DNA from: an uncultured bacterium
Lineage (GTDB): Bacteria; Acidobacteriota; Aminicenantia; UBA2199
DNA: 64,000 nt
Reading direction: 5' to 3'
NCBI GenBank assembly: GCA_942492175.1
Contig: CALODR010000009.1
Location: 353,850-417,849, forward strand
Shown: positions 9,355-26,377 of the stretch, piece after piece
How positions within the stretch are numbered: the first letter of the stretch is position 1
Layout of the letters: each line of letters starts with the position of its first letter
The notes under the pieces: model-generated
The model's input: only the letters and a program-made list of their open reading frames with translations
The model's database searches: none
What the model was told of the DNA's origin: nothing
Made by a program: the position numbers and the translations under genes

Positions 9355-10530
9355 TTATTTCAGCAAAATCCCTTTCAGACCGACAATTACGGATGGTGAG
9401 GAAGTTTTAAGAACGCGAAAAACAACTTTCCCTTTCTCTCTTCCGGGTACGGAAGTTTCAAATTCTCTCTTCTCTCCTTTTTTAACATCTCTGAACAATA
9501 ACTGGTCGACCATATTGTCATTAACCAGTACCTGAAGAATGATGTAATCCGAGTTATCTTTATATTCGACCGTACCCTTGATCAGAAGCATTTCAGATCC
9601 TGAAAAGATCCCCTCTTTTCTGATGGGAATGTTTTTCCCGCCCAGCCCGGTTACCTTGTTAAGTGTTATCTCTGCTTTTGCAATTATTATTTTGATCTCA
9701 TTAATACTGCTCTCACCGGTTACTTTGTCGAAAGAATCAAAAGATCTGACTCTCCAGTAAGTCCACCTGTTTCTCTTAAGCCCGTCCCAGATCTCTTTTC
9801 CCGGGGTGAAAGTGAGGCCCCCTCTGACATCATTCCAGACAAGAGAAGAGCTGTTGTTTAGAAGATCAAAAAGTGAGTTGGAAAAAGCGATCTGGTATCT
9901 TGCCGCACCTCCTCTTGGGACTGCCCATGAGAATTCGGGTATCTCATCCTCTTTTGCTACAAATCCATCTGGGGGTGTTAAGGTCTCCATGCTCTTCTCA
10001 AATGGGAGCACGTAGTATCTCAGTGTCGGAAACACAAGTTCGGTAGCCGGCCTGGTAAGCCGGAACGAGACAGTGTGTAAACCCGGTTCAATAGTGGGAA
10101 GCGGGCTTGCCTTGTCCAGAGTAATTTCCTTAACTTCACCCTGGCTTGATAACTCATTTATAAGGCCGAATACCGATCCGTCATATAACCAGTGCCCTGT
10201 GATAACCCCGGTCCCCTTCATTTTTAATTTTAATACCGGTTTAAGCTGATCCGAATTTCTGGGGACGACCATATAATATTTCCCGTTATCGAACTTGAGC
10301 TCAGCCAGATCGAGAATAACCTTATCCGTCAGTCCGAAGACCTTAACCATGGTTTCGAATGATTTTGTACTTTCTCCGCCTTCATCAACAGCAATGATCT
10401 TAAAATCTCCTGTCTGAGTGTAAGTGTGAGATATGGTATGACCTCCGATTACAACTGTTCCGTCACCGAAGTTCCATAAAATGGTATCTCCATTAAAATT
10501 GTAAGCAGTAACGGTAACCGGTTCTCCTAT
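9355..10530. repeat. ~1.2 kb direct repeat copy 1 (3' part of PKD paralog A), near-identical to 11151-12326
   Basis: Encoded proteins are 100% identical over ~250 aa and >95% over the remainder. Shadow ORFs 9806-10015 and 11605-11814 encode identical 69-aa peptides. Confidence 0.85.
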
Positions 10531-11148
10531 ATTGACCTCGGCAGTCGAGATCTGTATGAACCTGTCGTCCGGTGAGACTGTTACTACTGTTGAAATGGTC
10601 TCGTGTTTGATGTCAAGTTCTCTTACATTTACAGTATAAGTCCCCGGTGTCTGATATCTGTGTGTCTGGATATGACCTCCGTTCAAAACAGAACCGTCAC
10701 CAAAGTTCCAATATATTGTGGGGTTAAGAAAATGAAGTGCCTGGAGATATACCAGCTGATCAACCTTGGGAGTTGAAGGTGTTGCCGTAACCGCTCTTCT
10801 CGGTGCAATAGTAATATTTTTTGTGACGTTATATGCAGTAAAAACAAATCCGCATGACGGGGTCCACATGGCAACACCATGGGTATACCTTATTGTATAT
10901 GTACCCGGTAGATCAAATGAGTGGCTCTGCCAGCCATGATCCAGATCATCCGGGTATATTATAGTTGTGCCGTCACCGAAATTCCAGGTGGATGTCCCTC
11001 TGGCCGAGTCATGACAACTCTTGTTGAAACCTATTTTGTCACCTACAAAATAAGGCCCGTTCCAGTTAACTACAATTTGTGCATTTAACGATTGCACTAA
11101 AACTAAAGAAAATAAACATATGAATGGTATCAGATATATCTTCTTCAT
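9355..11148 (-). CDS. secreted PKD-repeat protein, paralog A (3 PKD domains plus conserved C-terminal module)
   Basis: Signal peptide; repeated 'WNFGDGT' PKD signature; residues ~207-597 are near-identical to paralog B. Confidence 0.8.
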   Translation of the reverse strand: MKKIYLIPFICLFSLVLVQSLNAQIVVNWNGPYFVGDKIGFNKSCHDSARGTSTWNFGDGTTIIYPDDLDHGWQSHSFDLPGTYTIRYTHGVAMWTPSCGFVFTAYNVTKNITIAPRRAVTATPSTPKVDQLVYLQALHFLNPTIYWNFGDGSVLNGGHIQTHRYQTPGTYTVNVRELDIKHETISTVVTVSPDDRFIQISTAEVNIGEPVTVTAYNFNGDTILWNFGDGTVVIGGHTISHTYTQTGDFKIIAVDEGGESTKSFETMVKVFGLTDKVILDLAELKFDNGKYYMVVPRNSDQLKPVLKLKMKGTGVITGHWLYDGSVFGLINELSSQGEVKEITLDKASPLPTIEPGLHTVSFRLTRPATELVFPTLRYYVLPFEKSMETLTPPDGFVAKEDEIPEFSWAVPRGGAARYQIAFSNSLFDLLNNSSSLVWNDVRGGLTFTPGKEIWDGLKRNRWTYWRVRSFDSFDKVTGESSINEIKIIIAKAEITLNKVTGLGGKNIPIRKEGIFSGSEMLLIKGTVEYKDNSDYIILQVLVNDNMVDQLLFRDVKKGEKREFETSVPGREKGKVVFRVLKTSSPSVIVGLKGILLK

Positions 11149-11150
11149 TT

Positions 11151-12326
11151 TTATCTCCGTAGTATTAAACCCTTTATTCCTACTATAACTGAAGGTGAGG
11201 AGGTTTTAAGAACGCGAAAAACAACTTTCCCTTTCTCTCTTCCGGGTACGGAAGTTTCAAATTCCCTCTTCTCTCCTTTTTTAACATCTCTGAACAATAA
11301 CTGGTCGACCATATTGTCATTAACCAGTACCTGAAGAATGATGTAATCCGAGTTATCTTTATATTCGACCGTACCATTGACCAGGAGTATTTCGGATCCT
11401 GAAAAGATACCCTCTTTTCTAATCGGGATATTTTTCCCCTCCAGTCCGGTCACCTTGTTAATCGTTATCTCTGCTTTTGCAATGATGATCTTGATCTCAT
11501 TGATACCGCTCTCACCTGTTACTTTGTCGAAAGAATCAAAAGATCTGACTCTCCAGTAAGTCCACCTGTTTCTCTTAAGCCCGTCCCATATCGCTTTTCC
11601 GGGGGTGAAAGTGAGTCCCCCTCTGACATCATTCCAGACAAGAGAAGAGCTGTTGTTTAGGAGATCAAAAAGTGAGTTGGAAAAAGCGATCTGGTATCTT
11701 GCCGCACCTCCTCTTGGGACTGCCCATGAGAATTCGGGTATCTCATCCTCTTTTGCTACAAATCCATCTGGGGGTGTTAAGGTCTCCATGCTCTTCTCAA
11801 ATGGGAGCACGTAGTATCTCAGTGTCGGAAACACAAGTTCGGTAGCCGGCCTGGTAAGCCGGAACGAGACAGTGTGTAAACCCGGTTCAATAGTGGGAAG
11901 CGGGCTTGCCTTGTCCAGAGTAATTTCCTTAACTTCACCCTGGCTTGATAACTCATTTATAAGGCCGAATACCGATCCGTCATATAACCAGTGCCCTGTG
12001 ATAACCCCGGTCCCCTTCATTTTTAATTTTAATACCGGTTTAAGCTGATCCGAATTTCTGGGGACGACCATATAATATTTCCCGTTATCGAACTTGAGCT
12101 CAGCCAGATCGAGAATAACCTTATCCGTCAGTCCGAAGACCTTAACCATGGTTTCGAATGATTTTGTACTTTCTCCGCCTTCATCAACAGCAATGATCTT
12201 AAAATCTCCTGTCTGAGTGTAAGTGTGAGATATGGTATGACCTCCGATTACAACTGTTCCATCACCGAAGTTCCATAAAATGGTATCTCCATTAAAATTG
12301 AAAGCGGTGACTGTAACCGGGGCTCC
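11151..12326. repeat. ~1.2 kb direct repeat copy 2 (3' part of PKD paralog B)
   Basis: See copy 1. Confidence 0.85.
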
Positions 12327-12962
12327 GATCGGTGTCTCTGATGTTGAAATTTGAATGAACCTGTCATCGGGAGATATAGTTACTGTTGCGTATATGGTCT
12401 CATGTTTTACATCCAGTTCTCTTGCCGTAATTGTGTACACTCCGGTTGACTGATACCTGTGGGTTTGAGTAAGACTTCCATTAAGTACAGTTCCGTCCCC
12501 GAAGTCCCAATAAACTGTGGTTCCCGTAAAATTCAGGGCCTGGATGTAGACAAGCTGATCAACCTTCGCGTTGGAGGGATAAGCTGTGACAGCCCTTTTT
12601 GGGTCAATAGTAATTCTGTATATAACGGTAAATGCATTTCCTGACCAGCTTCCATCATGACATATGGGAGTTGAAGAGGCAACACCATGGGTATACCTCA
12701 CTACATATGTCCCCGGTAGTGAATATGAGTGATACTGCCAGCCGTGATCATTGTCATCCAGATATGTGTAGGATGTACCGTCACCGAAATCCCAGGTGGA
12801 TGTTCCCCTGCTGGAATCATGACAGATTTTATTGAATCCGATTGTATCACCAACGTAATAGGGATCACTTTTATTAACTACAATTCCGGTTGGGAAAGAC
12901 TGAGCTTGAATTGAAACAGTAGTAAATATAGCAACTAATATTAATAAGTATGTCTTTTTCAT
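11151..12962 (-). CDS. secreted PKD-repeat protein, paralog B (tandem duplicate of A)
   Basis: Signal peptide; 'WDFGDGT/WNFGDGT' PKD motifs. The stop lies 2 nt from the start of paralog A. Confidence 0.8.
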   Translation of the reverse strand: MKKTYLLILVAIFTTVSIQAQSFPTGIVVNKSDPYYVGDTIGFNKICHDSSRGTSTWDFGDGTSYTYLDDNDHGWQYHSYSLPGTYVVRYTHGVASSTPICHDGSWSGNAFTVIYRITIDPKRAVTAYPSNAKVDQLVYIQALNFTGTTVYWDFGDGTVLNGSLTQTHRYQSTGVYTITARELDVKHETIYATVTISPDDRFIQISTSETPIGAPVTVTAFNFNGDTILWNFGDGTVVIGGHTISHTYTQTGDFKIIAVDEGGESTKSFETMVKVFGLTDKVILDLAELKFDNGKYYMVVPRNSDQLKPVLKLKMKGTGVITGHWLYDGSVFGLINELSSQGEVKEITLDKASPLPTIEPGLHTVSFRLTRPATELVFPTLRYYVLPFEKSMETLTPPDGFVAKEDEIPEFSWAVPRGGAARYQIAFSNSLFDLLNNSSSLVWNDVRGGLTFTPGKAIWDGLKRNRWTYWRVRSFDSFDKVTGESGINEIKIIIAKAEITINKVTGLEGKNIPIRKEGIFSGSEILLVNGTVEYKDNSDYIILQVLVNDNMVDQLLFRDVKKGEKREFETSVPGREKGKVVFRVLKTSSPSVIVGIKGLILRR

Positions 12963-13003: not shown

Positions 13004-14908
13004 TTAGAAAGCTATGTCTGCTTTCAGGTAAACTGAAGTGGAATCATTCGTCATTCCACTATTCTCATCTTTTTTATATGTCCCTTTCAAAGAGATTGAT
13101 GGTGTGATCTTATTTTTGAATAGTTTAGCCATGAAAAAATTAAGGCTGACGTCTGCAGAGAAGGTTTTTGAATCCGAATAAACGCTTTCACTGCTGTAAT
13201 ATGATGAAAAAATGGAAAGTGTGAAGATGTCGGGGATGAACTTAAGTTCTGAACTCAGGGTAGCATTAAGCATTTTTGATGTGGTGTCATCCTGATTGTC
13301 GGTCTTTGTATATGATGCAGACGGGGAAAGGGTAAGAAATTTTCCGATCGAAAATGACATTGAAAGGTTTGCATTCAGGTTGGAAGTGAAATTTTCAGAT
13401 TCGATCTTTCCGATTCCGAGTGATATAGAGTTGCTTCCCGAATAGTACCTGAGGTTAGTACCATAAGAGTTAGTGTTCATAGCGGTACCAGAGCTCTGGA
13501 GGCCTGAAGACTCATCATAGTTCAGATTGTTCCTTCCTAAATTTGCACTGAGGCTGAAATGATTTCCAATTGTCCAGTTAATATCGGTCTTAATCTCTTT
13601 TGTCCTTTCCGTGTTCCATTCTGTACTATTCAGATAGTTTTTTTCATCCCGGTAATTGACATTCCAGGTTATTTTTGTCAGGTTCAGCCCAATTGCGGTG
13701 TTAAGCCCTTCTCTATCGTTCAGCATCATCTGGTTTGCAATAGAGTAATAATTCGTACCTATTTTTTTATAATTTCCGTTTGCAGAGATCTTTCCCTTGT
13801 AAAAATTAAATCCGGCCTGCCAGGCACTGTCTTTTTCTTTTGATATATCATCACTGGTCTCACCTTTGCCGAAATTACTCTGTGCATATTCACCTTTCAG
13901 CGTAAGTGCACTTTTCATGAGTTTAAGTTCACCCCAGATCGAAATAATGTCACCTTCCCTGACAGGATCATCATTCGAATATAAGGTTTTACTATCGGTC
14001 TTATCTTTACCTGTTATGAATGAGGTTTTTATTGAAAATATCTGCCCTGATTTAAATCCTGTCGCTGCACCGAAAAGGTTTGCATCAGGTATCGGTATCC
14101 CGAATCCCTCAAAACCTGTTTTTTGCTGAGAGTTTACTGAAAACAGGTTGAAGTACAATTTATTTCCGGTCATTTCATAGTTTAACCCTCTTCTACTGAG
14201 CCATGAAGTTGAAAAATCTGAATGATTTATCGAAACATCACCAGCTTCAAATTTATGATTGCCTTTTTTGAACCTGACAATCATATTGGAAAGATTTATG
14301 TGGCTTTCATCAGGCCCGATCTGATCCAGGTAATTAAATGTGGATTCAAAATCGAACTGATATTCGTTGTCATAAATATTCCTGTATAATCTTATATTCC
14401 CGTTGTTTGAAAATGCTTTGCCCGGATAATCAGAATTGTCATGCAGTTTGGTGGTTGAAGAGTATGAGGGGCTTACTTTTAAAAAGGGATTCTTTGCTTT
14501 GGGCGTTGCTCCCCCTGATTCTGTATTTAAAAAATAGATCTCAGGTGATTCTTTCTTTGTAAAATTTGTGATAGTGAAGACCGGTGATAGGGGATTTTCC
14601 TTTCTTCTGTCTTTTTCAAAGATAAAGTATTCAATGTTTTTCCCGTAGAGGTTCTCAAGAGGCAATCTGTAGTAGATCTCCCCGTTTGCACTGACCTCCA
14701 TTTTCCTTACCTGATAATGATTCAGTCCCTCAGTTTTGTAGTAAATATAAAAATCATCTCCCCGGCTGAGTGTTGAAACTTTAATAGTTATTGCTTTTTC
14801 ACCCTTCTCAATTATCGGGAGGTAGTTGGAAAAGCCAAAGGATTTGCTTTGAACCGTCAAACTTAATAATAAAATCAGGATTAAAACACAGATAGGTTTT
14901 ATTCTCAT
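13004..14908 (-). CDS. outer-membrane beta-barrel protein (634 aa), family unknown
   Basis: Signal peptide 'MRIKPICVLILILLLSLTVQS'; long Ser/Thr/Asn/Gly/Tyr-rich amphipathic strands; C-terminal '...YLKADIAF' terminal Phe. Confidence 0.55.
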   Translation of the reverse strand: MRIKPICVLILILLLSLTVQSKSFGFSNYLPIIEKGEKAITIKVSTLSRGDDFYIYYKTEGLNHYQVRKMEVSANGEIYYRLPLENLYGKNIEYFIFEKDRRKENPLSPVFTITNFTKKESPEIYFLNTESGGATPKAKNPFLKVSPSYSSTTKLHDNSDYPGKAFSNNGNIRLYRNIYDNEYQFDFESTFNYLDQIGPDESHINLSNMIVRFKKGNHKFEAGDVSINHSDFSTSWLSRRGLNYEMTGNKLYFNLFSVNSQQKTGFEGFGIPIPDANLFGAATGFKSGQIFSIKTSFITGKDKTDSKTLYSNDDPVREGDIISIWGELKLMKSALTLKGEYAQSNFGKGETSDDISKEKDSAWQAGFNFYKGKISANGNYKKIGTNYYSIANQMMLNDREGLNTAIGLNLTKITWNVNYRDEKNYLNSTEWNTERTKEIKTDINWTIGNHFSLSANLGRNNLNYDESSGLQSSGTAMNTNSYGTNLRYYSGSNSISLGIGKIESENFTSNLNANLSMSFSIGKFLTLSPSASYTKTDNQDDTTSKMLNATLSSELKFIPDIFTLSIFSSYYSSESVYSDSKTFSADVSLNFFMAKLFKNKITPSISLKGTYKKDENSGMTNDSTSVYLKADIAF

Positions 14909-14984: not shown

Positions 14985-17807
14985 TTACAGGATCTTAAAG
15001 AACAAGATATCAGAAACAGTTGATACGGATCCGGTTGCGTCAACTATTCTTACCTGCCAGTATATCCAGTCTCCAGATTTGTATTTTGCAGTTTCAAGGT
15101 CAAAAGATGTGTCTTCCCCTGTCTCTATCCAATTTATGCTATTGTCACTCTGGAGTTGGAATGGGATTTCGGATACGGCAATTTCGAACCTGTCCCCCTG
15201 CCTTTTCTTTTTCCATTTTAGTTTTATTATATCTTTACGTGTCAATTTTGATCCGGATAAAGGGGATATTGTTTTTATGGACCCGCTGTTGGTCACAAAA
15301 TATCTTAAAGTAGGGATCTTGCCCTCAAAATTATAATTTTCAAAATCTAAACTTAATGAATGAATTCCTGTTTCGAGTACAGGAAGTTTCGGGACTTCGC
15401 TGGCTTTTATGGTAATAAGGTTTCTTCCTGCCAGTAGTTTTGTGAATAAACCAAAAACCTTCCCGTCAAAAAGCCATTTACCGGTGATAATTCCTTTCCC
15501 GTTTATTTTCAGCTTTAACTGATAACCGGGGGAAAAGCTGTTAAGCGGAACGATCCTGTAGTATTTTCCATTGCTGAAAGTGAGCTCCAGAGCATTTATT
15601 CTGAAATCCTCCGTCTGCTCCCTGACCTTTACAGTTTTTGTGAACAATTTTTTTCCTTGGCCTTCATAGTCAACAGCTGTGATCTTATATGTACCTGTTT
15701 TGTTGAAAGTCTGTGTAATGGTTTTGGAGAGGATTTTGGGCGGGCTGCCGTCTCCCACATCCCATTTGACTGCATTACCATTAAAATTTTGTGCAGTCAG
15801 TTTAAGCGGTTCACCGATGAGGACGGTCTCTTCCCCGAGAATAAGTGATCTTGTGTCAGGTTGAACATTTATTGTTTTTACAACCGGCGGATAAAGTCCG
15901 GACCTGTCAGTTAAAATAATTTGTTTTACTCCGGGAGTGTTAAAGACTATTTCGCCCGGATTTTGTCCGGATACGGTTTTCCCCCCCTGAAATTTCCACT
16001 CATAATTCCCGCCTTGTGAGTTTTTCAACTGCATTGAAAACGGAACTCCGGCAATAATAGTTTTTCCTAATTCCAGCACACGGGAATCCCTGACAACATT
16101 TATGCTGAGTTCTATTTCCCTGGATCCTTTCCCGTCAAAATCTATAGCGGTTATTCTATAATTTCCGGGCATTTTATATTTATGAGTAATTCTTTTTGAG
16201 CCTCTCTGGTCCGAGCCGTCTCCAAAGATCCATCTTACTCTGTTGTCAGCGAAATTTCTTGCTTCAAATTCTGTTTCCGTGTCTGCGATAATAGTTCCCT
16301 TGCGGGATACTATTTCCCTGTTATCCCTTAAAACATTTATCCTCACCTTCACAGGAATTTTTGAAGTGCCGTCAAAATCAAATACCTGAACAACAAAATT
16401 TCCCGGTCTCATATACGTATAATTTATTTGATGCGAGCCATTCCTGATTGTTCCGTCTCCCATATCCCATTTAACTGAAGGAGAATTCAAATTGCGTCCT
16501 ATAATTTTTAATTCAGTTTTTTCAAAAATTTGACTATTTTCAACTTTGAGTTCTCTGTTATCGTTTATTGTAATAAATTCTCTTACGGGCGACTGCCCCT
16601 GTATATCAGCAATAACCTCAACTCTTCCAGGATCCTTGAATTTATGCTGGATCTCCAGTGGGGAATTGTTTGCGGGGTTTTCGTTTCCTATCTTCCAGGT
16701 TACAGTATTTGCAGAACTATTCTGAAGCTTAATCATTACCTGCTGCCCGACAAGTGCTGCCGGCGGCTGAATCAGGACCTTTCTTTTATCCTGATTTACA
16801 GATACCATCACCGTTACAAATGGAGAAGATGATCCGGCTTCCCTTGCTTTAATATTGAAGTTTCCCATGTTTGTAAAAGTGTGTTTTTCTGTCTGTCCGC
16901 CGGTTTTTTTATTGTTTTGGCCGAAATCCCACTCAATTGATCCTGAAGTAAAATTGACTGCATTAAATGTAACTTCTTCATAAAGTGAGGGGTTTTGCGG
17001 AGATATATTTATAGATCTGTTGTCAGGTGAAACGTTTACGGTTTCTTCAATAAAGCTGTTCGGACCTATTGCCATGTCTGTTACCCTGACCTTAAAGTTA
17101 CCCTGAGATGAAAATATATGAGTCATTGATTGTCCGCCGTTCTGTATTGCTCCGTCCCCGAAATCCCATTTAAGGTTTGCGGAAAAATTTACCGCCTGGA
17201 AAGCTATTTCCCTCCCTGCCATCGGAGATGAGGGTTGATAATTTACAGAACGGTTATCTGGTGCTATTGATATTGTGCAGGTTATAACTGAAGATGAATT
17301 TCCAGCGTAATCTTTTACTTTTATTGTATAATTACCTGGATTTGAATAAGTATGCTCCCTGCTCTGCTGACCGTTATTTACTGTTCCGTCTCCGAAATCC
17401 CAGTTCAGAGTATTTTCAACAAAATAATTTGTGTTAAATAAAACAGGATTTCCGGCCATAAAAGAGCTACCACTAGGTTCAACAGTTCTCCTTTCTGTAA
17501 CATTAATTATTGATGTCAACAGAGTCGGTTGGCCGCCTGCAGGGGTTTTTTCACAAGTTACTTCATAATTTCCCGGTTCTTTATAAATATGGTTTGCTTG
17601 AGATTGGGCCCCCTCAACAGGTGGAGTTCCGTCCCCGAAATTCCATTTGTAGTTAAATTGAGATGAAGGAGGTCCCCCTCCCTGAATTCCAAAAGTCACC
17701 TGTGTACCCGGGAACACCTGGTTAGGTTGGTTGTGGATGTTCTCACTATTTAATTGGTTGAATAAAAGCAGGAATACTAACGATACAAAAATGAGGTTTT
17801 TTTTCAT
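14985..17807 (-). CDS. large secreted PKD-repeat protein C (~8 PKD domains plus the C-terminal module shared with A and B)
   Basis: Many 'WDFGDGT/WNFGDG' motifs. The start is probably the internal ATG at 17807 (MKKNLIFVSLVFLLLF) preceded by GGAG, not 17858. C-terminal ~210 aa are homologous to A/B ('LTFSNGKYYRIVP' vs 'LKFDNGKYYMVVP'; 'GKWLFDGKVFGL' vs 'GHWLYDGSVFGL'; 'PTLRYFV' vs 'PTLRYYV'). Confidence 0.8.
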   Translation of the reverse strand: MKKNLIFVSLVFLLLFNQLNSENIHNQPNQVFPGTQVTFGIQGGGPPSSQFNYKWNFGDGTPPVEGAQSQANHIYKEPGNYEVTCEKTPAGGQPTLLTSIINVTERRTVEPSGSSFMAGNPVLFNTNYFVENTLNWDFGDGTVNNGQQSREHTYSNPGNYTIKVKDYAGNSSSVITCTISIAPDNRSVNYQPSSPMAGREIAFQAVNFSANLKWDFGDGAIQNGGQSMTHIFSSQGNFKVRVTDMAIGPNSFIEETVNVSPDNRSINISPQNPSLYEEVTFNAVNFTSGSIEWDFGQNNKKTGGQTEKHTFTNMGNFNIKAREAGSSSPFVTVMVSVNQDKRKVLIQPPAALVGQQVMIKLQNSSANTVTWKIGNENPANNSPLEIQHKFKDPGRVEVIADIQGQSPVREFITINDNRELKVENSQIFEKTELKIIGRNLNSPSVKWDMGDGTIRNGSHQINYTYMRPGNFVVQVFDFDGTSKIPVKVRINVLRDNREIVSRKGTIIADTETEFEARNFADNRVRWIFGDGSDQRGSKRITHKYKMPGNYRITAIDFDGKGSREIELSINVVRDSRVLELGKTIIAGVPFSMQLKNSQGGNYEWKFQGGKTVSGQNPGEIVFNTPGVKQIILTDRSGLYPPVVKTINVQPDTRSLILGEETVLIGEPLKLTAQNFNGNAVKWDVGDGSPPKILSKTITQTFNKTGTYKITAVDYEGQGKKLFTKTVKVREQTEDFRINALELTFSNGKYYRIVPLNSFSPGYQLKLKINGKGIITGKWLFDGKVFGLFTKLLAGRNLITIKASEVPKLPVLETGIHSLSLDFENYNFEGKIPTLRYFVTNSGSIKTISPLSGSKLTRKDIIKLKWKKKRQGDRFEIAVSEIPFQLQSDNSINWIETGEDTSFDLETAKYKSGDWIYWQVRIVDATGSVSTVSDILFFKIL

Positions 17808-17854: not shown

Positions 17855-20641
17855 TCATTTTTTTATAAAAAACTTATAAAGGTTAAAATTTGCCCATATC
17901 ATGGGATGAGAAAATGACAACTTTCTTCCGTTTCCCAGTTCAATGATTCTTTTTCTGAAAGATATTTTAACATTCCTTAATATAGTAGCGAGGTCATCCG
18001 CCCGCCCTTTTTCATTCTTGAGCTCTGTATAGAAAGGGACAATGATTTCTGAACTAAACTCATTGACAGGCCATAAACTCGCTATCATCGATTCTGCTCC
18101 GGAATTATAAAGTGTTGCTGTAATACCGCTTATCAACTGTTCCCCCATGAGATGATTTTCCAGGCTTCCGCAGGTGCTTAAAAAGATCAGGTCGCAATTC
18201 AATCTCAGTCTGGAAATATCGGAAACAAAATATAATGGATCGTTTTCCTTCCGGGCGGAGAACAGAAACATTGAATACCATGGGTATTTCCTGTTACTAA
18301 CAAAATGTGTTGCCAGATGAATTATTCTTGAAACTGTTGCAGTTTTATTGAAATTTTCCTTTGTGAATTCTTTCCCGGTATAAAATCTCCCCCTCTTATC
18401 TCCCCAGATATTTTTTATTTTTCTGATCTCTTCCTTTGATGAAGGGAGTAGGGTGAAAATAGAGTTACCCTTTTCAGAAAAATCAGAAAGCCATTTGTTC
18501 TTAGGGTCTATTACGGGAAATCCGAAGGCACTTATATCATATTTTTTCCTTCCTTTTTTTTTGTTATTTTTAAGGTGGAAAATGGAGAACAGGTATTCGA
18601 TGGAATATCTGTCAATAAGGAATTGAGTGTTCTCATATTCAGAAAAGATCACATTTTTTATTCTATAACTTCTCTTTTTTTTTGTTATTAAAGCCTCAAA
18701 CGGGATCTTGAAAAGGGCATCGTCAGGAATAATTATGAGCTTTTCCTTATCTTTATGAAACTCCAGAACATCATGAAGAAGGATATTATACAATTCAGCT
18801 GATTTCTCCTGGTCATATTTGATCCGCAGGAAGTCCACTTCGTTATTTTCATATCTTTGAATTGGGGATAATAGGGATCCTATAAGATTTTTTATATATT
18901 TGCTCCCCTTTTCTAGTTTTTTATATCCGGCGGATTTGTGATCGATAACAAAAGCATACGTATTATCTTCGAGCACGATGAACCTAACCACAAGAGTATC
19001 CCTGTCAAGTATATTCCTGATTTTTGTCAGATCCAGTTCAGAGATCAGAAATCTTTTGTATCTTTTCGGGAACTCAAGAATAAGGTCTTCAAGCTCTATA
19101 AGTTCTGTTTTCAGTGAATCTACCATTTTTTTATAAGATATGATCCTGGATTCTTTAATATGTCCTTTTAAAATTTTCTCTTCAGCTGCCCTGACCTCAT
19201 TTTCGACTCTGGTTTTTTCTTTTTCTATACTTTGTATGCGGCGGTCCCCGTCAGATATTCTCCTGAACATATAAGGATTCTTAACCTCTCCTGAGTAAAA
19301 AGCCATTCTGAGATATTTCAGTTCATTTGTCTTATCAAACATTCTGAAGTTAAACCTTGCTATCCTTGAATAAATGAAGGTGATCTCCTCCCTGTATGGA
19401 TAATGTCTGAGGTGATTCAATTCAGAAAAAAAATAGTTAAGGCTCCTGAATGTTTTTTCATAATATTCACCTGCAACTTCCGGTTTCCCGATTTTTTCAT
19501 TCAGCATACCTCTGAGAAAATAGTAGAAAAAATATCCGCGGTAGAACGGAGTGTAAATCTTACTCATTTTATTCAGATAAGCCATCGCCTCTTCCGGGTT
19601 GTTATAATGAATAGCCCTTTTTATAAACTCGTAGAGAACCGGCATAAGGTGTTCGTAAGATTCATTGTTGATGCCGAAATCCGCAGTGTTCTTCAGAATA
19701 GTTAGTCCGCTGATATCCTGATCATTATAAAAAAATAATTTAGATCTCATAAAATAGGCATTTAGAATAAGTTCCGGGAAATTTTTTTTCTCTCCAATTG
19801 CGATGCTTCTTCTGTTGTATTGTTCAGCTTTGTTGTAATTCGCTTCAGACATGAAAACTTCTGTATAGATATTAAATATCCACATTTTCAGATGTTCATT
19901 CCTGAATTTTTCAGCATAATTCAGTGATCTTCCGAGAAATTTAAGAGCAAGCTTGTTTTTCCCCAGATGGAAAAAAGCTTTTGCTATCCTGTTATAAATA
20001 TACCCGCTGCTTGAAGCTTCCATTTTTTCTGAATATTTTATCGCTTCAAAAAAAAACTGCAGTGATCTCAGAAAATTGTTTTCATGAAGGTGATAATCTC
20101 CGAGGGTAATAAATAATTGCTTCAGTGAGTCATTGTCTTTATATTTCTTTCTTAATTCTGCCTGGTTCTCAAGATATAATATCTCCCTTTTGATGTCACC
20201 GTTTCTCCTGTGAAATTCATGCAGTTTTATAAGTGATTCGAGTCTATCCCTGTCATTTCCGGAGTTTGCCAGTGCTTTCTTTAGATAATTCTCATTGTTT
20301 TTATCTGATATTTTTGCCAATTGAAGGTATATATAGTAATAAACTTTTTTGAATTTTTTTTTTCTCAAAATCTTTTTAAAAAAATCAGATGTTTTCTGAA
20401 CGTTTTTCAATATTTTTGAATTCCGGCCTACCATAAGGAGTTTGTGTTTTAAAATTTCGACACTTTGATCAGGTTCGAATTCTGAGATTTCAACCATAAG
20501 TTTCTCCTGATCTACTTCTGTAAATTTTTTTGTACTTAATTGTGCAGGACAAATTAAAATCAAGGAAAACATGAAGAAGAGGAGAGGGGGAATATATCTC
20601 ATTTCATATAAAAGTTTAATTAATAAGAAAAAAAAATTCAA
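17855..20641 (-). CDS. secreted TPR-repeat / CHAT-domain (clan CD, caspase-like) peptidase
   Basis: N-terminal hydrophobic signal, TPR-like helical repeats (residues ~100-420), coiled coil, C-terminal CHAT with the His ('IIHLATHF') and Cys ('IFLSTCGSLE') dyad regions. Confidence 0.8.
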   Translation of the reverse strand: MNFFFLLIKLLYEMRYIPPLLFFMFSLILICPAQLSTKKFTEVDQEKLMVEISEFEPDQSVEILKHKLLMVGRNSKILKNVQKTSDFFKKILRKKKFKKVYYYIYLQLAKISDKNNENYLKKALANSGNDRDRLESLIKLHEFHRRNGDIKREILYLENQAELRKKYKDNDSLKQLFITLGDYHLHENNFLRSLQFFFEAIKYSEKMEASSSGYIYNRIAKAFFHLGKNKLALKFLGRSLNYAEKFRNEHLKMWIFNIYTEVFMSEANYNKAEQYNRRSIAIGEKKNFPELILNAYFMRSKLFFYNDQDISGLTILKNTADFGINNESYEHLMPVLYEFIKRAIHYNNPEEAMAYLNKMSKIYTPFYRGYFFYYFLRGMLNEKIGKPEVAGEYYEKTFRSLNYFFSELNHLRHYPYREEITFIYSRIARFNFRMFDKTNELKYLRMAFYSGEVKNPYMFRRISDGDRRIQSIEKEKTRVENEVRAAEEKILKGHIKESRIISYKKMVDSLKTELIELEDLILEFPKRYKRFLISELDLTKIRNILDRDTLVVRFIVLEDNTYAFVIDHKSAGYKKLEKGSKYIKNLIGSLLSPIQRYENNEVDFLRIKYDQEKSAELYNILLHDVLEFHKDKEKLIIIPDDALFKIPFEALITKKKRSYRIKNVIFSEYENTQFLIDRYSIEYLFSIFHLKNNKKKGRKKYDISAFGFPVIDPKNKWLSDFSEKGNSIFTLLPSSKEEIRKIKNIWGDKRGRFYTGKEFTKENFNKTATVSRIIHLATHFVSNRKYPWYSMFLFSARKENDPLYFVSDISRLRLNCDLIFLSTCGSLENHLMGEQLISGITATLYNSGAESMIASLWPVNEFSSEIIVPFYTELKNEKGRADDLATILRNVKISFRKRIIELGNGRKLSFSHPMIWANFNLYKFFIKK

Positions 20642-20701
20642 TTTATTGATAATAATTATCCTTTCCTTTAAAATTAAAGTGGTTTATTTAAAGGCCGGGA
20701 G

Positions 20702-21273: not shown

Positions 21274-21963
21274 ATGAAGTGCAAAGAATTTGAGTCTCTC
21301 ATAGGAAATTATCTTGAAGGGACAATAGAGGACAATAAAAGGGAAATATTTGAAGAGCATTATTTTGTTTGCGATGAATGTTATGCTTCATTGGTTTTAA
21401 TTGAGAACCTTCGTGAAAAAAATGTTAGGATAGTACCGGGAAAGCAAAGAAATTACTCGTTCACCTTCAGGCCGGCACTATTCTTCGCTTCATTGATCCT
21501 GGTAGTATTTACATCTCTCTTTGTTACAGATTTTAACAACAGAAAAGAAAAATTATTGGATATCTCGGATTTTTCTGCCCCCCTTTACGTGAAAGGAGAG
21601 AACAGAGGTGATGATTTTTCGGATATGTTCCATGAAGCTATGGATAATTATCAGAATAGTAACTATAAAAAAGCTTATATCATAATAGCATCTATAGAAA
21701 ACGGGAATCCGAAGACATGGTTTTTCAGGGGAATTCTTGCATTGCTTAACGGAAAAAATAAGGATGCACTCATACATTTTGATAAAATAATAGTTGAAAT
21801 GTCTCCATCTTACTATGACGAAGCCATATACTATCGGGGGATCTGCTACTTGAGACTGAACCGGAAACATGATGCAGTAAAGCAATTTAAAATGCTTGAG
21901 TCTATGTTCAGCCCTCTCCGTCAGAAAGCTGCTGAAATGGTAAAAAGAATCTTAAGCGTCTGA
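21274..21963 (+). CDS. anti-sigma factor (zf-HC2 type) with single TM and C-terminal TPR-like domain
   Basis: N-terminal 'CKEF...EEHYFVCDECY' putative zinc finger; TM 'PALFFASLILVVFTSLFV'; starts 12 nt downstream of the ECF sigma gene. Confidence 0.65.
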   Translation: MKCKEFESLIGNYLEGTIEDNKREIFEEHYFVCDECYASLVLIENLREKNVRIVPGKQRNYSFTFRPALFFASLILVVFTSLFVTDFNNRKEKLLDISDFSAPLYVKGENRGDDFSDMFHEAMDNYQNSNYKKAYIIIASIENGNPKTWFFRGILALLNGKNKDALIHFDKIIVEMSPSYYDEAIYYRGICYLRLNRKHDAVKQFKMLESMFSPLRQKAAEMVKRILSV

Positions 21964-23944: not shown

Positions 23945-26377
23945 TTAATTGCTTTCACGGATTAAATTATCAAGACGCTTTTGCTGTGCAGGTCTCATGT
24001 TATTGTAGAATCTTTTTTTACATCTGTTGAACAGTTCAAAAGCTTTCTCTCTGTTGCCGGATCTGAGGTATACAATACCGAGATTAAAATAGACTTCAAT
24101 TTGGCCCGGGTCAATCTTCAGGGCTTTCTCTAAGTCTTTAATGGCTTCTCCTGTGTTTTTCAAAAATATTTGAATTGTACCTCTTCCTGAAAATGACTCT
24201 GCTAAAAGAGGATTTATGGAGATAGCTTTAGTGAAACTATCGTAGGCTTCGGTGAGCAGGGAGGGTTCCCTCTTCTGCATGAATATCATGAGCTTTGATA
24301 TTCCTAACTTGTTTAATGCATCGCTGTTTCTGGGGTCTTTTTTAAGTGCCTCGGTGAAATATTTAAGAGATTCTCCCTGTCTTCCGGTTTTAGACAGTAT
24401 GGTTCCATATGAGATATAAGGCTGTGGTTCATCCGGATGGAGCGAGATAAGTTGTTTCATTAATTCCAATCCCTTTTCCGGTGAGCCGGTATTGAGAAGC
24501 TGCATTGATATATCTGATAGAAATTCTATGTTGTCTTTATTGCTCCTGAATTGAATATCTCCAGACAATTTTTCAAGTATCTCTACTGCTTCTGTTTTGC
24601 GACCCATTTTTCTCAAGACCCGGGCTATACTCCTTTTTATTCCGAAATTCATAGGTTCTATAACTTCCGCTTTTCGGTATTCCTTTAGTGCACTCACATA
24701 ATCTTTTTTCATATTATAAATTTTCCCAAGCATTATTATTGCCTGGGTGCTGTTCTTGTATTTTTTCAATATGTTTCTACTTACTCTCTCTGCATCGCTT
24801 AATCGTCCTGATACAAAATAGGAGGTTGCCAGAAGGTCTGAGAAAGCAATGCTGTCGGGGAAATCTCTGACAGCCATCTCACGATATTTCAACAGATTTT
24901 TTTCATCTTCTTTGCTTCTGTAAAGGGCATCAAAAATTTCATAAACATGGATTGTGTCAATTCTGTTTTTTGAATAAAATATTTTTTTTAGATTCCTTTC
25001 TGCGGTAGACAACTTCCCCTCTGATACATCCGTTCTTATTGACCTTAATTTATTCAGATAGTCGACTCCGGTTTTAGGATCTATTTGTTTATCAGATCTT
25101 TTAAATGAGGATATATAGCCGAGTGATGCGAGATGGTCTCGGTCCTGCTTGCTCATTTCCCTTTTATTTGAAGAGGTGATGCCTGAGCTGCCGATATAAA
25201 AATCACTCAGTTTTCTGTCAAGATCTTTGGCGATATCCCTGTTCGAATTGAATATATTTGTCGATTCGCCGGGATCTGATTTAAGATTGTAAAGCTCCGG
25301 TTTTGGGAGTGATATATATTTGAATTCACGGCTGATGATTCCGGTAAGAGGGGCCCAGCCCATATGTTCATATGCATAGAGACTCTCAAAATAGAGGTCT
25401 CTCTGATCTCTATTTCCTCCTTTTGCAGAAGAGAGGAGGATAGAGCCTTTTTCCGTACCTGATCGATTTTCTGACATATCGGATATTGCCTGATAAATAT
25501 CAGTAAGTTTAACCCTGCTTTGGACCCGTTTCCCCGGCTTGATCCCCGGACAGTTCCAGATTATCAGAGGTACTCTTAATGTAACATCATAGCAGAATAT
25601 TCCGTGGCTGAACTCCCCGTGTTCCCCTTTATCCTCCCCGTGATCACCGACAATTACTATGATGGTGTTTTTCAGCAGCTTTCTCTGTTTCAGTAAATCT
25701 ACAATCTTACCAATGTATTGGTCCATATAAGCAATTTCGCCGAGGTAGGGGTCTTTCTCAAATTTAATTCTATATTCTCCCGGGGGGGAGTACGGTGTGT
25801 GTGGGTCATAAAAATGGACCCATCCGAAAAACTTTCTTTTCCCGGCCCTGTTCAGAAGAATTTTGAATTTATTAAAAACATTCTCTGCGGGAATTTGAGA
25901 AGATTGGGTTACATTAGCTTCACCGACATTAAGGGAGTCATCATAAATATCAAAACCTCTGGCAAGTCCGAATTTGGAAGCCAGAACGTAGGAGGATATA
26001 ACTGCAAAAGTGAAAAAGTTTTTTTCCTTTAAAAGTTCAGCAATGGTTTTGTGTTGATTTCCGAGGGAATACCATCCATTATTTCTGACCTTTAATACAA
26101 AGGGGTGTTTTCCCGTGAGGATGGATGAGTGTGCGGGGAGTGTCAGCGGGATATTTGAATAACAATTTTCAAAAACAACTCCTCCATCTCCCAATTTGTT
26201 AATATTGGGAGTGAAATTCAGGTTGCTGTTGTAACATCCCAAATGATCTGCTCTGGTAGTATCGAGTGTTATCAGGAGGATGTTCTTTTGTGCATTCTCT
26301 GACGGATGGGAGAATGATGGGATCATTATCAGAATAATTAATATAAAAAATAGTGATTTTTTTGCTATAAGTGCCAT
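23945..26377 (-). CDS. sulfatase-like (alkaline phosphatase superfamily) domain fused to C-terminal TPR repeats; secreted
   Basis: 'LLITLDTTRADHLGCYN' metal-binding motif, 'NIPLTLPAHSSILTG' (no CxPxR formylglycine motif), then ~8 TPR repeats; signal peptide. Confidence 0.75.
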   Translation of the reverse strand: MALIAKKSLFFILIILIMIPSFSHPSENAQKNILLITLDTTRADHLGCYNSNLNFTPNINKLGDGGVVFENCYSNIPLTLPAHSSILTGKHPFVLKVRNNGWYSLGNQHKTIAELLKEKNFFTFAVISSYVLASKFGLARGFDIYDDSLNVGEANVTQSSQIPAENVFNKFKILLNRAGKRKFFGWVHFYDPHTPYSPPGEYRIKFEKDPYLGEIAYMDQYIGKIVDLLKQRKLLKNTIIVIVGDHGEDKGEHGEFSHGIFCYDVTLRVPLIIWNCPGIKPGKRVQSRVKLTDIYQAISDMSENRSGTEKGSILLSSAKGGNRDQRDLYFESLYAYEHMGWAPLTGIISREFKYISLPKPELYNLKSDPGESTNIFNSNRDIAKDLDRKLSDFYIGSSGITSSNKREMSKQDRDHLASLGYISSFKRSDKQIDPKTGVDYLNKLRSIRTDVSEGKLSTAERNLKKIFYSKNRIDTIHVYEIFDALYRSKEDEKNLLKYREMAVRDFPDSIAFSDLLATSYFVSGRLSDAERVSRNILKKYKNSTQAIIMLGKIYNMKKDYVSALKEYRKAEVIEPMNFGIKRSIARVLRKMGRKTEAVEILEKLSGDIQFRSNKDNIEFLSDISMQLLNTGSPEKGLELMKQLISLHPDEPQPYISYGTILSKTGRQGESLKYFTEALKKDPRNSDALNKLGISKLMIFMQKREPSLLTEAYDSFTKAISINPLLAESFSGRGTIQIFLKNTGEAIKDLEKALKIDPGQIEVYFNLGIVYLRSGNREKAFELFNRCKKRFYNNMRPAQQKRLDNLIRESN

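Follow-up and report, generated by a model that had tools for sequence, protein, structure and literature searches.

The window, by which we mean the whole 64-kb stretch of Aminicenantes DNA analyzed, carries on its minus strand a gene for a TPR-CHAT protein with a predicted export signal, and beside it the genes for an ECF sigma factor and a zinc-finger anti-sigma factor (Table 1). Proteins of this type, with Phe or Tyr after the putative catalytic His (ATH[F/Y] CHATs), have an almost constant sigma/anti-sigma adjacency, and the exported TPR-CHAT protein is therefore most likely an extracytoplasmic sensor or cutter that switches the sigma factor on. On balance, it is probably the detached half of a split DdvA, that is, a periplasmic sensor combined with a site-1 protease for the adjacent anti-sigma factor. 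The evidence comprises the domain composition, a conserved His/Cys dyad, a conserved signal segment, the predicted fold, and a gene linkage that extends to gene fusions.

Table 1. Features of the TPR-CHAT locus, with positions in the window
Feature	Position	Strand	Evidence
Exported TPR-CHAT gene (predicted export)	17855..20602, stop codon included	-	ORF; conserved ATG; Pfam CHAT and TPR_12; AF2 model
Signal-like segment, residues 1-23, MRYIPPLLFFMFSLILICPAQLS	20534..20602	-	Sole hydrophobic segment; conserved; AF2
Helical TPR region, residues 29-440, 22 helices	19283..20518	-	AF2 secondary structure; TPR_12; family profile
CHAT (caspase-fold) domain, residues 599-908	17879..18808	-	PF12770
Putative catalytic His766 codon, HLATH-F	18305..18307	-	Invariant in three alignments
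Putative catalytic Cys811 codon, FLSTC	18170..18172	-	Invariant in three alignments
CHAT operon promoter-like element: AATTGAAT, 17 nt, TAAACT	20613..20643	-	Conserved across 10 loci
Sigma-70-like promoter of the ECF sigma gene: TTGATA, 17 nt, TAAAAT	20646..20674	+	Consensus scan, 10/12 matches
ECF sigma factor, 186 aa	20702..21262	+	TIGR02937, 59.4 bits (cutoff 42.9); Sigma70_r2; adjoins CHAT in related loci
Anti-sigma factor, 229 aa	21274..21963	+	zf-HC2, 25.4 bits (cutoff 22.2); TPR_2; one TM helix
Membrane-adjacent motif of the anti-sigma factor, residues 100-112, F-S-A-P-L-Y-V-K-G-E-N-R-G	21571..21609	+	20-homologue alignment
Multi-PKD signal-bearing protein, 940 aa from Met18 of the mechanical ORF, first cargo gene	14985..17807	-	PKD and PKD_4, E 1e-60; homologues align from Met18
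Outer-membrane protein (predicted), 634 aa: signal peptide, N-terminal beta-sandwich, 26-strand beta-barrel	13004..14908	-	AF2, pLDDT 78
Two tandem paralogous PKD proteins, 603 and 597 aa, common C-terminal module	9355..12962	-	Pfam PKD

An ORF of 928 aa at 17855..20641 had been given in the preliminary description; its span is correct, and its strand, left unsaid there, is minus. The length is that of the mechanical ORF opened by TTG at 20641. When the sigma/CHAT intergenic regions of 10 loci were aligned, the ATG at 20602 proved to be kept in all of them, and the TTG was rejected as start codon because it falls within the conserved -35-like AATTGAAT element; the most likely product is therefore a protein of 915 aa that starts with MRYIPPLLFF. 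The database protein P0001 (NCBI), 100% identical, has 880 aa and a start equivalent to MVEISEF, with the signal segment lost. The promoter-like pattern upstream of the CHAT gene (AATTGAAT, 17 nt, TAAACT) occurs twice in the window against 0.29 occurrences expected, and the ATG follows just 10 nt past the -10 element, so that the CHAT mRNA would be nearly leaderless. The promoter of the ECF sigma gene and the CHAT -35 element stand back to back. A common ECF-type promoter for the sigma gene and the CHAT operon was rejected, as both elements are sigma-70-like (TTGAAT/TAAACT and TTGATA/TAAAAT) and no motif of the GAAC...CGT type was seen at these conserved promoter elements.

TPR repeats followed by a CHAT domain were confirmed as a genuine TPR-CHAT architecture by Pfam (CHAT PF12770, 125.3 bits against a cutoff of 24, E 4.2e-36; TPR_12, E 1e-7, residues 202-271) and by the predicted fold. 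The TPR-CHAT family profile matched consensus TPR proteins at E 2.5e-22, and the AF2 model (pLDDT 86, pTM 0.81) showed a caspase-like fold of the CHAT domain, with Csx29 as the top fold match of the protein. The two regions previously named as catalytic, IIHLATHF (residues 760-767) and IFLSTCGS (residues 806-813), are indeed kept, with His766 and Cys811 present without exception in alignments of 16 close homologues, of 24 sequences including distant CHATs, and of 21 sequences including Bacteroidales CHAT-only proteins. This invariance reaches down to 25% identity and includes proteins without the TPR region, which argues for selection on catalysis. The dipeptides canonical for clan CD, His-Gly and Ala-Cys, are replaced in the TPR-CHAT protein by His-Phe and by Ser-Thr-Cys, and the putative peptidase activity could therefore be altered. 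Phe or Tyr after the catalytic His is the mark of the ATH[F/Y] clade; among more distant CHAT representatives, the motif was located in 94, and 44 of these have Gly at that place.

The N-terminal hydrophobic signal noted earlier was recovered as the only hydrophobic segment of the protein (residues 1-25), and it is kept in 14 of 16 homologues, the remaining two having truncated called starts. It has the makings of a Sec-type signal, M-R followed by a hydrophobic core of 11 to 15 residues that is conserved family-wide and is too short for a membrane anchor, and AF2 modeled residues 4-16 as a low-confidence helix followed by coil. No clean AXA cleavage site was found in the N-terminal segment; the C-P-A-Q-L-S stretch has Pro at -2 and, in the 16-homologue alignment, no conserved lipobox Cys. 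A lipoprotein reading of LILIC was rejected, with Ile at -1 unfit for a lipobox and the Cys not conserved. On this heuristic of N-terminal hydrophobicity and conservation, the protein is predicted to be exported to the periplasm.

The gene neighbors, namely signal-bearing PKD proteins, an ECF sigma factor, and a zf-HC2 anti-sigma factor, were as previously described, and the sigma factor proved to be a recurrent partner. An ECF sigma gene was found within 1.2 kb at 32 of the 37 distinct ATH[F/Y]-type CHAT loci that had enough flanking sequence, many of the 32 being close relatives, so that the counts are not independent. Thirty of these were detected by local HMM search, and two (L061 and L069) were added by inspection, solely on the similarity of their upstream ORF to the ECF factor flagged in L059; the upstream ORF of L061 matched no Pfam family at E ≤ 0.01. 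The five related loci without a nearby sigma factor are L020, L028, L029, L043, and L068. Three unrelated signal-bearing TPR-CHAT proteins with ATHA or ATHS motifs, taken as context controls, all lacked a nearby sigma factor.

The linkage takes five gene arrangements in at least two phyla. In Aminicenantes, the sigma/anti-sigma pair is divergent to a CHAT-PKD-barrel-PKD operon; elsewhere it is divergent to the gene of a short, roughly 530-aa CHAT protein, which is followed by housekeeping genes. Bacteroidales have sigma factor, anti-sigma factor, and a signal-bearing CHAT-only protein in the same direction, and at L053 and L054 the sigma factor and zf-HC2 anti-sigma factor are followed by a signal-bearing TPR-CHAT protein. 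In the fifth arrangement, the sigma gene precedes a fused protein of about 1200 aa, with anti-sigma N-domain, TM, and TPR-CHAT. Such fusions provide a Rosetta-stone argument that would link the two functions, in line with DdvA-DdvS.

The anti-sigma factor of the window has a zinc finger (Cys3/His29/Cys33/Cys36) conserved in 20 homologues, a TM helix at about residues 65-84, and a TPR-like domain predicted to be periplasmic. In its membrane-adjacent motif, the residues F, P, E, and R each reach 90% conservation or more among the 20 homologues. R-[GSN] motifs, defined post hoc with the data already viewed, were present at comparable positions in all architecture classes, against a background of 0.07 per 60 aa. 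From the sequence, Arg111 (GENR|G) is a candidate site-1 cleavage site.

The cargo part of the operon encodes PKD proteins and a barrel. The genes of the tandem PKD paralogues, of which related loci have one or two copies, share a 300-nt repeat at 91% identity. The 634-aa barrel protein had no Pfam or NCBIfam match, and 142 of the candidates scored were homologues at E ≤ 1e-3; the best fold match of the barrel protein was MtrB (6r2q_B, TM 0.48), followed by the FimD and PapC ushers, at 8-12% identity. Barrels of the MtrB and chaperone-usher types serve a partner protein, which they either hold across the outer membrane or let through it, and this fits the constant pairing of barrel and PKD genes. 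Unlike those systems, the barrel gene has neither cytochromes nor pilus chaperones nearby.

Outside CRISPR loci, signal-bearing TPR-CHAT proteins are the common case: about 70,900 cluster representatives matched the TPR-CHAT profile at E < 1e-3, and about 73% of the nearest TPR-CHAT representatives have signal-like N-termini. The preliminary description had thus been wrong to frame the protein as unusual, and right about the absence of CRISPR from the window, where no CRISPR-like repeat array was found and the 40 other ORFs contained no cas gene in PADLOC and Pfam scans, only a RecD2 helicase. No cas genes or CRISPR were found in the flanks of about 10 kb at more than 15 related loci, and no anti-phage defense genes were found beside the CHAT locus. 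The term Craspase-like of the preliminary description was apt in part. Csx29 had no match by phmmer of PDB or with two profiles (E ≤ 1 to 10), so that the term holds for fold and domain order and not for sequence homology. The single TPR-CHAT sequence matched only a TPR protein in PDB, and with the single-sequence and profile searches weak or empty, no sequence-level membership in Csx29, separase, or DdvA is claimed.

Craspase (type III-E; Csx29 TPR-CHAT, Cas7-11, Csx30, and CASP-sigma; PDB 7Y9X and 8EEY) has the TPR-CHAT fold in common with the protein of the window and cleaves Csx30, an inhibitor of an ECF-like sigma factor (PMC10028731). Csx29 is cytoplasmic and activated by RNA via Cas7-11, whereas the protein here has a predicted export signal and no cas neighbors, and the inhibitor is a classical membrane anti-sigma factor instead of Csx30. 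A defense protease of the Craspase type, with its Cas7-11 partner encoded elsewhere in the genome, is accordingly very improbable, given a conserved export signal that implies a compartment other than that of a cytoplasmic RNA-guided complex, the lack of cas genes and arrays in the window and related flanks, and the lack of sequence similarity to Csx29. RNA-guided defense had been considered unlikely from the start, and we concur.

The closest known system is DdvA-DdvS of Myxococcus, in which a periplasmic TPR-CHAT is proposed as site-1 protease ahead of RseP, and self-cleavage of DdvA, itself only a proposal, as the trigger of sigma release (PMC11506125). No other periplasmic TPR-CHAT has been studied. 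DdvA-like proteins, combining a zinc-finger anti-sigma domain with a periplasmic TPR-CHAT, have been reported only in Myxococcota and one Comamonas species (PMC11506125), and a full-text literature search for CHAT paired with a sigma factor returned the DdvA and CRISPR papers only. The locus of the window, from a different phylum, likewise combines a CHCC zinc-finger anti-sigma factor with an adjoining ECF sigma factor on neighboring genes. DdvA is a single polypeptide that unites anti-sigma domain, TM helix, and TPR-CHAT, whereas here the CHAT protein has a signal segment and no anti-sigma domain, and the 229-aa anti-sigma factor is separate, with a small TPR domain of its own. With the module split into two genes, any cleavage would take place in trans, unlike the autoproteolysis within a dimer envisaged for DdvA. 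Further marks of the DdvA type are an arrow shape of that dimer and the lack of the three-helix motif in its CHAT domain. The surroundings also differ, a CBASS/CRISPR defense island for DdvA and PKD surface proteins with an outer-membrane barrel here. By sequence, DdvA was reached at a marginal E of 1e-3 with the full-length family profile, and a CHAT-only profile search of PDB gave nothing relevant.

In its layout, the locus also resembles the DegS-RseA-RseP-sigmaE pathway, which is regulated intramembrane proteolysis with a separate site-1 protease. Both have a separate periplasmic protease (predicted here) with a protein-binding sensor, a single-pass anti-sigma factor, and an ECF sigma factor, and a link to outer-membrane protein assembly may exist here too. 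DegS is a serine protease with a PDZ domain; the protein here has a predicted caspase/CHAT fold with a putative TPR sensor. Separase, the eukaryotic helical-repeat and caspase-fold protease, is nuclear or cytoplasmic and regulated by securin, and has no detectable sequence similarity to the TPR-CHAT protein.

In a split DdvA, the anti-sigma factor, through its CHCC zinc finger, single TM helix, and small periplasmic TPR domain, would keep the sigma factor at the membrane at rest. The TPR solenoid of the CHAT protein would sense an envelope signal, and the reading of this signal would align the His766/Cys811 dyad. One candidate for the signal is the assembly state of the 26-strand barrel and of the PKD surface proteins co-transcribed with the CHAT gene. 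The CHAT protease would then cut the anti-sigma factor in its conserved membrane-adjacent stretch, with Arg111 as the candidate site, and a site-2 protease would remove the membrane stub. The freed sigma factor would switch on a regulon that probably includes the CHAT-PKD-barrel-PKD operon. Several observations tell against a split DdvA: the CHAT gene is transcribed here with the cargo genes and not with sigma and anti-sigma genes, its promoter has no recognizable ECF-type motif, the sequence link to DdvA is marginal, five related loci have no sigma factor, the residues around the His and Cys are non-canonical, and proteolysis is only proposed even for DdvA.

Two candidate substrates, the PKD cargo and the anti-sigma factor, had been put forward in the preliminary description. 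The CHAT protein could be a downstream effector, acting in the periplasm as a processing or maturation protease or as a transpeptidase for PKD surface proteins that are exported or displayed via the barrel, with the ECF pair merely setting expression; PorU is a caspase-fold enzyme with a transpeptidase role. We hold this to be rather unlikely, as barrel and PKD pairs occur without any CHAT gene or the ECF sigma factor of the CHAT locus (L021 and L022), at least three architectures have sigma/anti-sigma/CHAT triads with neither PKD nor barrel genes, and fusions of TPR-CHAT to an anti-sigma domain would be hard to explain. Because CHAT is linked to sigma/anti-sigma genes at most loci, is fused to the anti-sigma domain in some, and is separable from PKD and barrel genes, comparative genomics favors the anti-sigma factor over the PKD cargo as the presumptive substrate.

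The conserved sigma linkage would fit equally well with regulation of the anti-sigma factor without cutting, in which the TPR solenoid binds a ligand or the periplasmic TPR domain of the anti-sigma factor and, in the manner of RseB, shields the anti-sigma factor from or exposes it to a different site-1 protease, the CHAT domain being a scaffold. The His-Phe and Ser-Thr-Cys motifs fit as well, as does the DdvA active site, described as incomplete and in a resting geometry (PMC11506125). We nevertheless give this little credence, in view of the invariance of His766 and Cys811 even in CHAT-only proteins and of Bacteroidales partners that have no TPR region at all. We think it just as improbable that the adjacency is functionally meaningless and the protein one of many stand-alone exported TPR-CHAT proteases, although the family is very large, most of its nearest members have signal-like N-termini, the generic members sampled stand alone, and five related loci have no sigma factor. 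Linkage at 32 of 37 loci, in five arrangements across at least two phyla and with fusions, stands against it.

The two-gene arrangement in Aminicenantes shows that the CHAT/anti-sigma partnership reaches further phyla and has several forms. More tentatively, and as a possibility that we would not yet call probable, exported ATH[F/Y] CHATs may form a widespread, unrecognized class of site-1 proteases that have a caspase fold and act on ECF anti-sigma factors, both fused (DdvA-like) and split, in Acidobacteriota/Aminicenantes, Bacteroidota, and soil lineages, which would cut after a conserved membrane-adjacent Arg and in Aminicenantes would tie sigma activation to the state of assembly of a new surface system of MtrB-like 26-strand barrel and PKD proteins. 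The split form separates the putative protease from its putative substrate, which makes a simple trans-cleavage assay the key step. If the proposal is not true, the gene encodes just another ordinary CHAT domain-containing protein. If it is true, a caspase-fold enzyme would join the few site-1 proteases listed for bacterial transmembrane signaling, and tens of thousands of exported TPR-CHAT proteins without a known role would gain a first functional handle.

In all Aminicenantes loci with enough flank, a common module was found in which the genes for an ECF sigma factor and a zf-HC2 anti-sigma factor are divergent from a CHAT operon, where the CHAT gene is followed by those for a PKD protein, a ~635-aa protein outside any Pfam family and then another one or two PKD proteins. 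This module was kept in the related loci L013-L015 despite a CHAT identity of only 32-36% and different wider flanks. With the family alignment as seed, a scan of metagenomes yielded 47 additional loci. Among the 37 distinct ATH[F/Y] CHAT loci with usable flank, an ECF sigma gene was present within 1.2 kb in 30 according to the local HMM, and in 32 when L061 and L069 were added by eye, many of the linked loci being closely related and the counts therefore non-independent. The upstream ORFs of these two loci resemble the ECF flagged in L059, and that of L061 matched no Pfam family.

Besides (a) the full Aminicenantes module, the linkage took the following arrangements: (b) a sigma/anti-sigma pair divergent from the gene for a short CHAT protein (~530 aa, signal-bearing), which has housekeeping genes downstream of it (L038-L048); (c) operons in Bacteroidales, where the sigma factor precedes a single-pass protein (254-269 aa) and a CHAT-only protein with a signal (~400 aa; L018, L019, L055, and L057); (d) sigma factor, a zf-HC2-like protein (~355 aa) and a TPR-CHAT protein of ~1,045 aa that bears a signal (L053 and L054); and (e) sigma factor followed by a ~1,200-aa protein built like DdvA from an anti-sigma-like N-domain, a single TM helix and TPR-CHAT (L059-L069). 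In the short-CHAT architecture, the sigma and CHAT genes are separated by a conserved small ORF, whose product (133-142 aa; signal-like N-terminus, no Pfam family) could be a further module component. Homologues of the 634-aa protein were paired with a PKD protein in L021 and L022, where neither CHAT nor a window-type sigma factor was found, and three generic signal-bearing TPR-CHATs with other motifs had no sigma factor nearby. On this distribution, the CHAT gene is assigned to the sigma/anti-sigma pair, while the genes for the PKD proteins and the barrel are lineage-specific cargo.

DdvA of Myxococcus xanthus is an anti-sigma factor of the CHCC zinc-finger type with one TM helix and, in the periplasm, ~900 residues that adopt a TPR-CHAT fold, the His/Cys site facing the linker of the partner protomer, and signal-induced CHAT autoproteolysis was proposed by its authors as the site-1 step ahead of RseP, DdvA-like proteins being reported from Myxococcota and one Comamonas species only (PMC11506125). 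In type III-E systems, Csx29 cuts Csx30, which inhibits an ECF-like sigma factor (PMC10028731). Within the full texts searched, only the DdvA and type III-E work was returned for CHAT together with sigma factors. Whereas the anti-sigma and TPR-CHAT parts are fused in DdvA, they are split into two genes at the window locus, one for an exported TPR-CHAT protein and one for a separate anti-sigma factor. Fused ~1,200-aa proteins directly downstream of a sigma-like gene were observed on metagenome contigs (L059, L060, L061, L063, L066, and L069); their N-domain lacks the zinc-finger Cys/His pattern, and their juxtamembrane linker carries conserved RP[LV]ExR and TRG motifs. The DdvA architecture appears to be distributed more widely than was found in the published survey, which dealt with zinc-finger forms.

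The 229-aa anti-sigma factor of the window contains the CHCC residues Cys3, His29, Cys33, and Cys36, followed by a TM helix (about residues 65-84) and a periplasmic TPR-like domain. In 20 anti-sigma homologues, F-x-x-P-x5-E-x-R-[GNS] was unusually conserved ~15-27 residues past the TM helix, its Arg corresponding to Arg111 in the window. [TN]-R-[GS] motifs are also present in the partners of the other architectures, which are otherwise unrelated in sequence; their distance from the TM helix is 21-37 residues in the fused proteins and in L053/L054, and 60-70 residues in Bacteroidales. For the Arg motif, the background rate is 0.07 per 60 residues, and the pattern was noticed after the fact. A preference for Arg at P1 is common in clan-CD peptidases (separase ExxR, gingipain R, and metacaspases), and the juxtamembrane Arg motif is offered in keeping with it as a candidate cleavage site.

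The TPR-CHAT reading frame reported at 17855..20641 was found, on the minus strand, which the preliminary description had left unstated. When the sigma/CHAT intergenic regions of 10 related loci were aligned, the motif AATTGAAT-17 nt-TAAACT and the ATG at 20602 proved to be conserved. The mechanical TTG start (20641) was rejected because it sits within this promoter-like element as part of the -35, and the protein was taken as 915 aa with the N-terminus MRYIPPLLFFMFSLILICPAQLS. With the ATG just 10 nt past the -10-like hexamer TAAACT, the CHAT operon appears to be nearly leaderless, and its start region contains no Shine-Dalgarno sequence. The divergent -35 elements of the sigma and CHAT genes form the inverted repeat TCAAT-N3-TTGA. 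Aligned to the ORF, the 880-aa NCBI protein P0001, 100% identical to the window protein, starts at a downstream internal Met and loses the signal segment; the N-termini of the database proteins P0003 and P0013 are shorter, too. The deposited proteins would give wrong localization predictions.

The TPR-CHAT protein has one hydrophobic segment only, at the N-terminus, and a basic residue followed by an 11-15-residue hydrophobic core was conserved in 14 of 16 homologues, the other two having truncated called starts. A core of 11-15 residues is more consistent with a cleavable signal than with a membrane anchor. The AF2 model showed a low-confidence helix and then coil, and a clean AXA site was absent. 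A lipoprotein was rejected, the Cys being not conserved and preceded by Ile. The proposed export signal was upheld; export is well supported, and cleavage of the signal may follow. Every downstream product of the CHAT operon also begins with a signal-like segment.

Pfam assigned residues 599-908 to CHAT (PF12770, E 4e-36) and gave a single TPR_12 match; consensus TPR proteins were matched by the family profile (E 2.5e-22). The catalytic-region motifs quoted previously were located at residues 760-767 and 806-813, and conservation of the dyad was confirmed by alignment: neither His766 nor Cys811 varied among 16 full-length homologues (37-73% identity), among 24 sequences with distant CHATs or among 21 sequences including Bacteroidales CHAT-only proteins. 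The putative catalytic His is followed by Phe in the window protein, by F or Y in its clade, and most commonly by Gly in more distant CHATs. The AF2 model built with 24 sequences (pLDDT 86, pTM 0.81) had 22 helices over residues 29-440, a middle region of mixed structure and a CHAT domain of alpha/beta type, and Foldseek matched it to Csx29, separase, and DdvA (E 1e-11 to 1e-15, 9-14% identity). None of these three was recovered by a sequence search with the single protein or matched by a CHAT-only profile, and DdvA was the sole CHAT structure matched by the full-length profile, at a marginal E of 1e-3. The earlier label "Craspase-like" therefore holds for fold and domain order but not for family membership.

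The 64-kb window contained no CRISPR-like array, and no cas genes were detected by PADLOC and Pfam among 40 other ORFs, the only matches being a RecD2 helicase and housekeeping genes, in agreement with the preliminary description; none occurred in related loci with 10-kb flanks. The strong PADLOC matches of the RecD2-type helicase (type IV RecD, PDC-S68), which stands alone among housekeeping genes, are probably family cross-matching and not a defence system. When 1.84 billion cluster representatives were searched with the profile, 70,900 matched at E < 1e-3 and 2,923 of them at E < 1e-30, only ~20 of the matching representatives belonging to the window protein's own subfamily. By a simple hydrophobicity test, N-termini were signal-like in 23 of 28 subfamily members, in 82 of 113 other close TPR-CHAT representatives and in 11 of 40 control ORFs from the window. 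By these numbers, an exported TPR-CHAT outside CRISPR is the usual case and not an oddity.

The 634-aa protein had 142 homologues at E <= 1e-3 among the candidates scored; the 120 listed were mostly ~635 aa, with a Pfam domain in none, and the protein itself matched no Pfam or NCBIfam family. Its AF2 model (pLDDT 78) predicts a signal peptide, a beta-sandwich at the N-terminus and a 26-strand outer-membrane barrel ending in Phe, with MtrB as the best fold match, then the FimD and PapC ushers. A PKD protein always follows it, even in genomes without a CHAT gene. The fold matches and this constant partner suggest that the predicted barrel holds or passes the PKD surface protein, and the two may form a pair for surface display or secretion that has not been described before. 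The tandem PKD paralogues are nearly identical over the C-terminal two-thirds (300-nt block at 91%; long identical protein stretches) and diverged in their N-terminal PKD regions, which resembles the outcome of a recent duplication, or of gene conversion while the exposed end diversified. Homologues of the ankyrin protein (59-67% identity) lie downstream of the sigma/CHAT/PKD module in L009 and L011; to our knowledge, exported ankyrin proteins are unusual in bacteria. A sulfatase gene related to that of the 810-aa window protein was located within the PKD/barrel operon in L001 and after the operon in L015.

Coordinates of features in the window and in three related loci of the short-CHAT architecture
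Feature	Sequence	Position	Strand	Description
RecD2-type helicase	Window	24-1787	+	
767-aa protein	Window	6865-9168	-	Signal-like N-terminus, ~10 ankyrin repeats
Tandem PKD paralogues	Window	9355-12962	-	603 and 597 aa
634-aa protein	Window	13004-14908	-	Predicted barrel
TPR-CHAT gene	Window	17855-20602	-	
CHAT operon start region	Window	20600-20643	-	
810-aa protein	Window	23945-26377	-	N-terminal sulfatase domain, long C-terminal TPR region, signal or anchor segment
Small ORF	L038	7409-7837	-	
Small ORF	L047	7374-7775	-	
Small ORF	L048	7087-7488	-	

The best-supported reading, which we favour slightly on balance, is a split DdvA-like arrangement in which the exported TPR-CHAT protein would sense a signal and then, as site-1 protease, cut the anti-sigma factor encoded next to it. 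This reading is weakened by promoters that are sigma-70-like, not ECF-like, and by the non-independence of closely related loci. It is also weakened by the co-transcription of CHAT with the cargo genes at the window locus. A protease that processes this cargo is rather unlikely, set beside the barrel/PKD pairs that occur without CHAT.

The non-canonical residues flanking the His/Cys dyad further weaken the site-1 reading and would agree with a non-catalytic regulator, a doubtful proposal for a protein whose two putative catalytic residues are invariant. Five ATH[F/Y] CHAT loci without a nearby sigma factor likewise count against site-1 cleavage and would fit a stand-alone protease for which adjacency to the sigma pair is meaningless, an equally doubtful option beside the linkage in five arrangements. 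A Craspase-type defence protease is highly improbable, no cas gene having been detected in the window or in the 10-kb flanks of related loci. By itself, the TPR-CHAT gene is ordinary; the split arrangement reduces the mechanistic proposal made for DdvA to a simple experiment.
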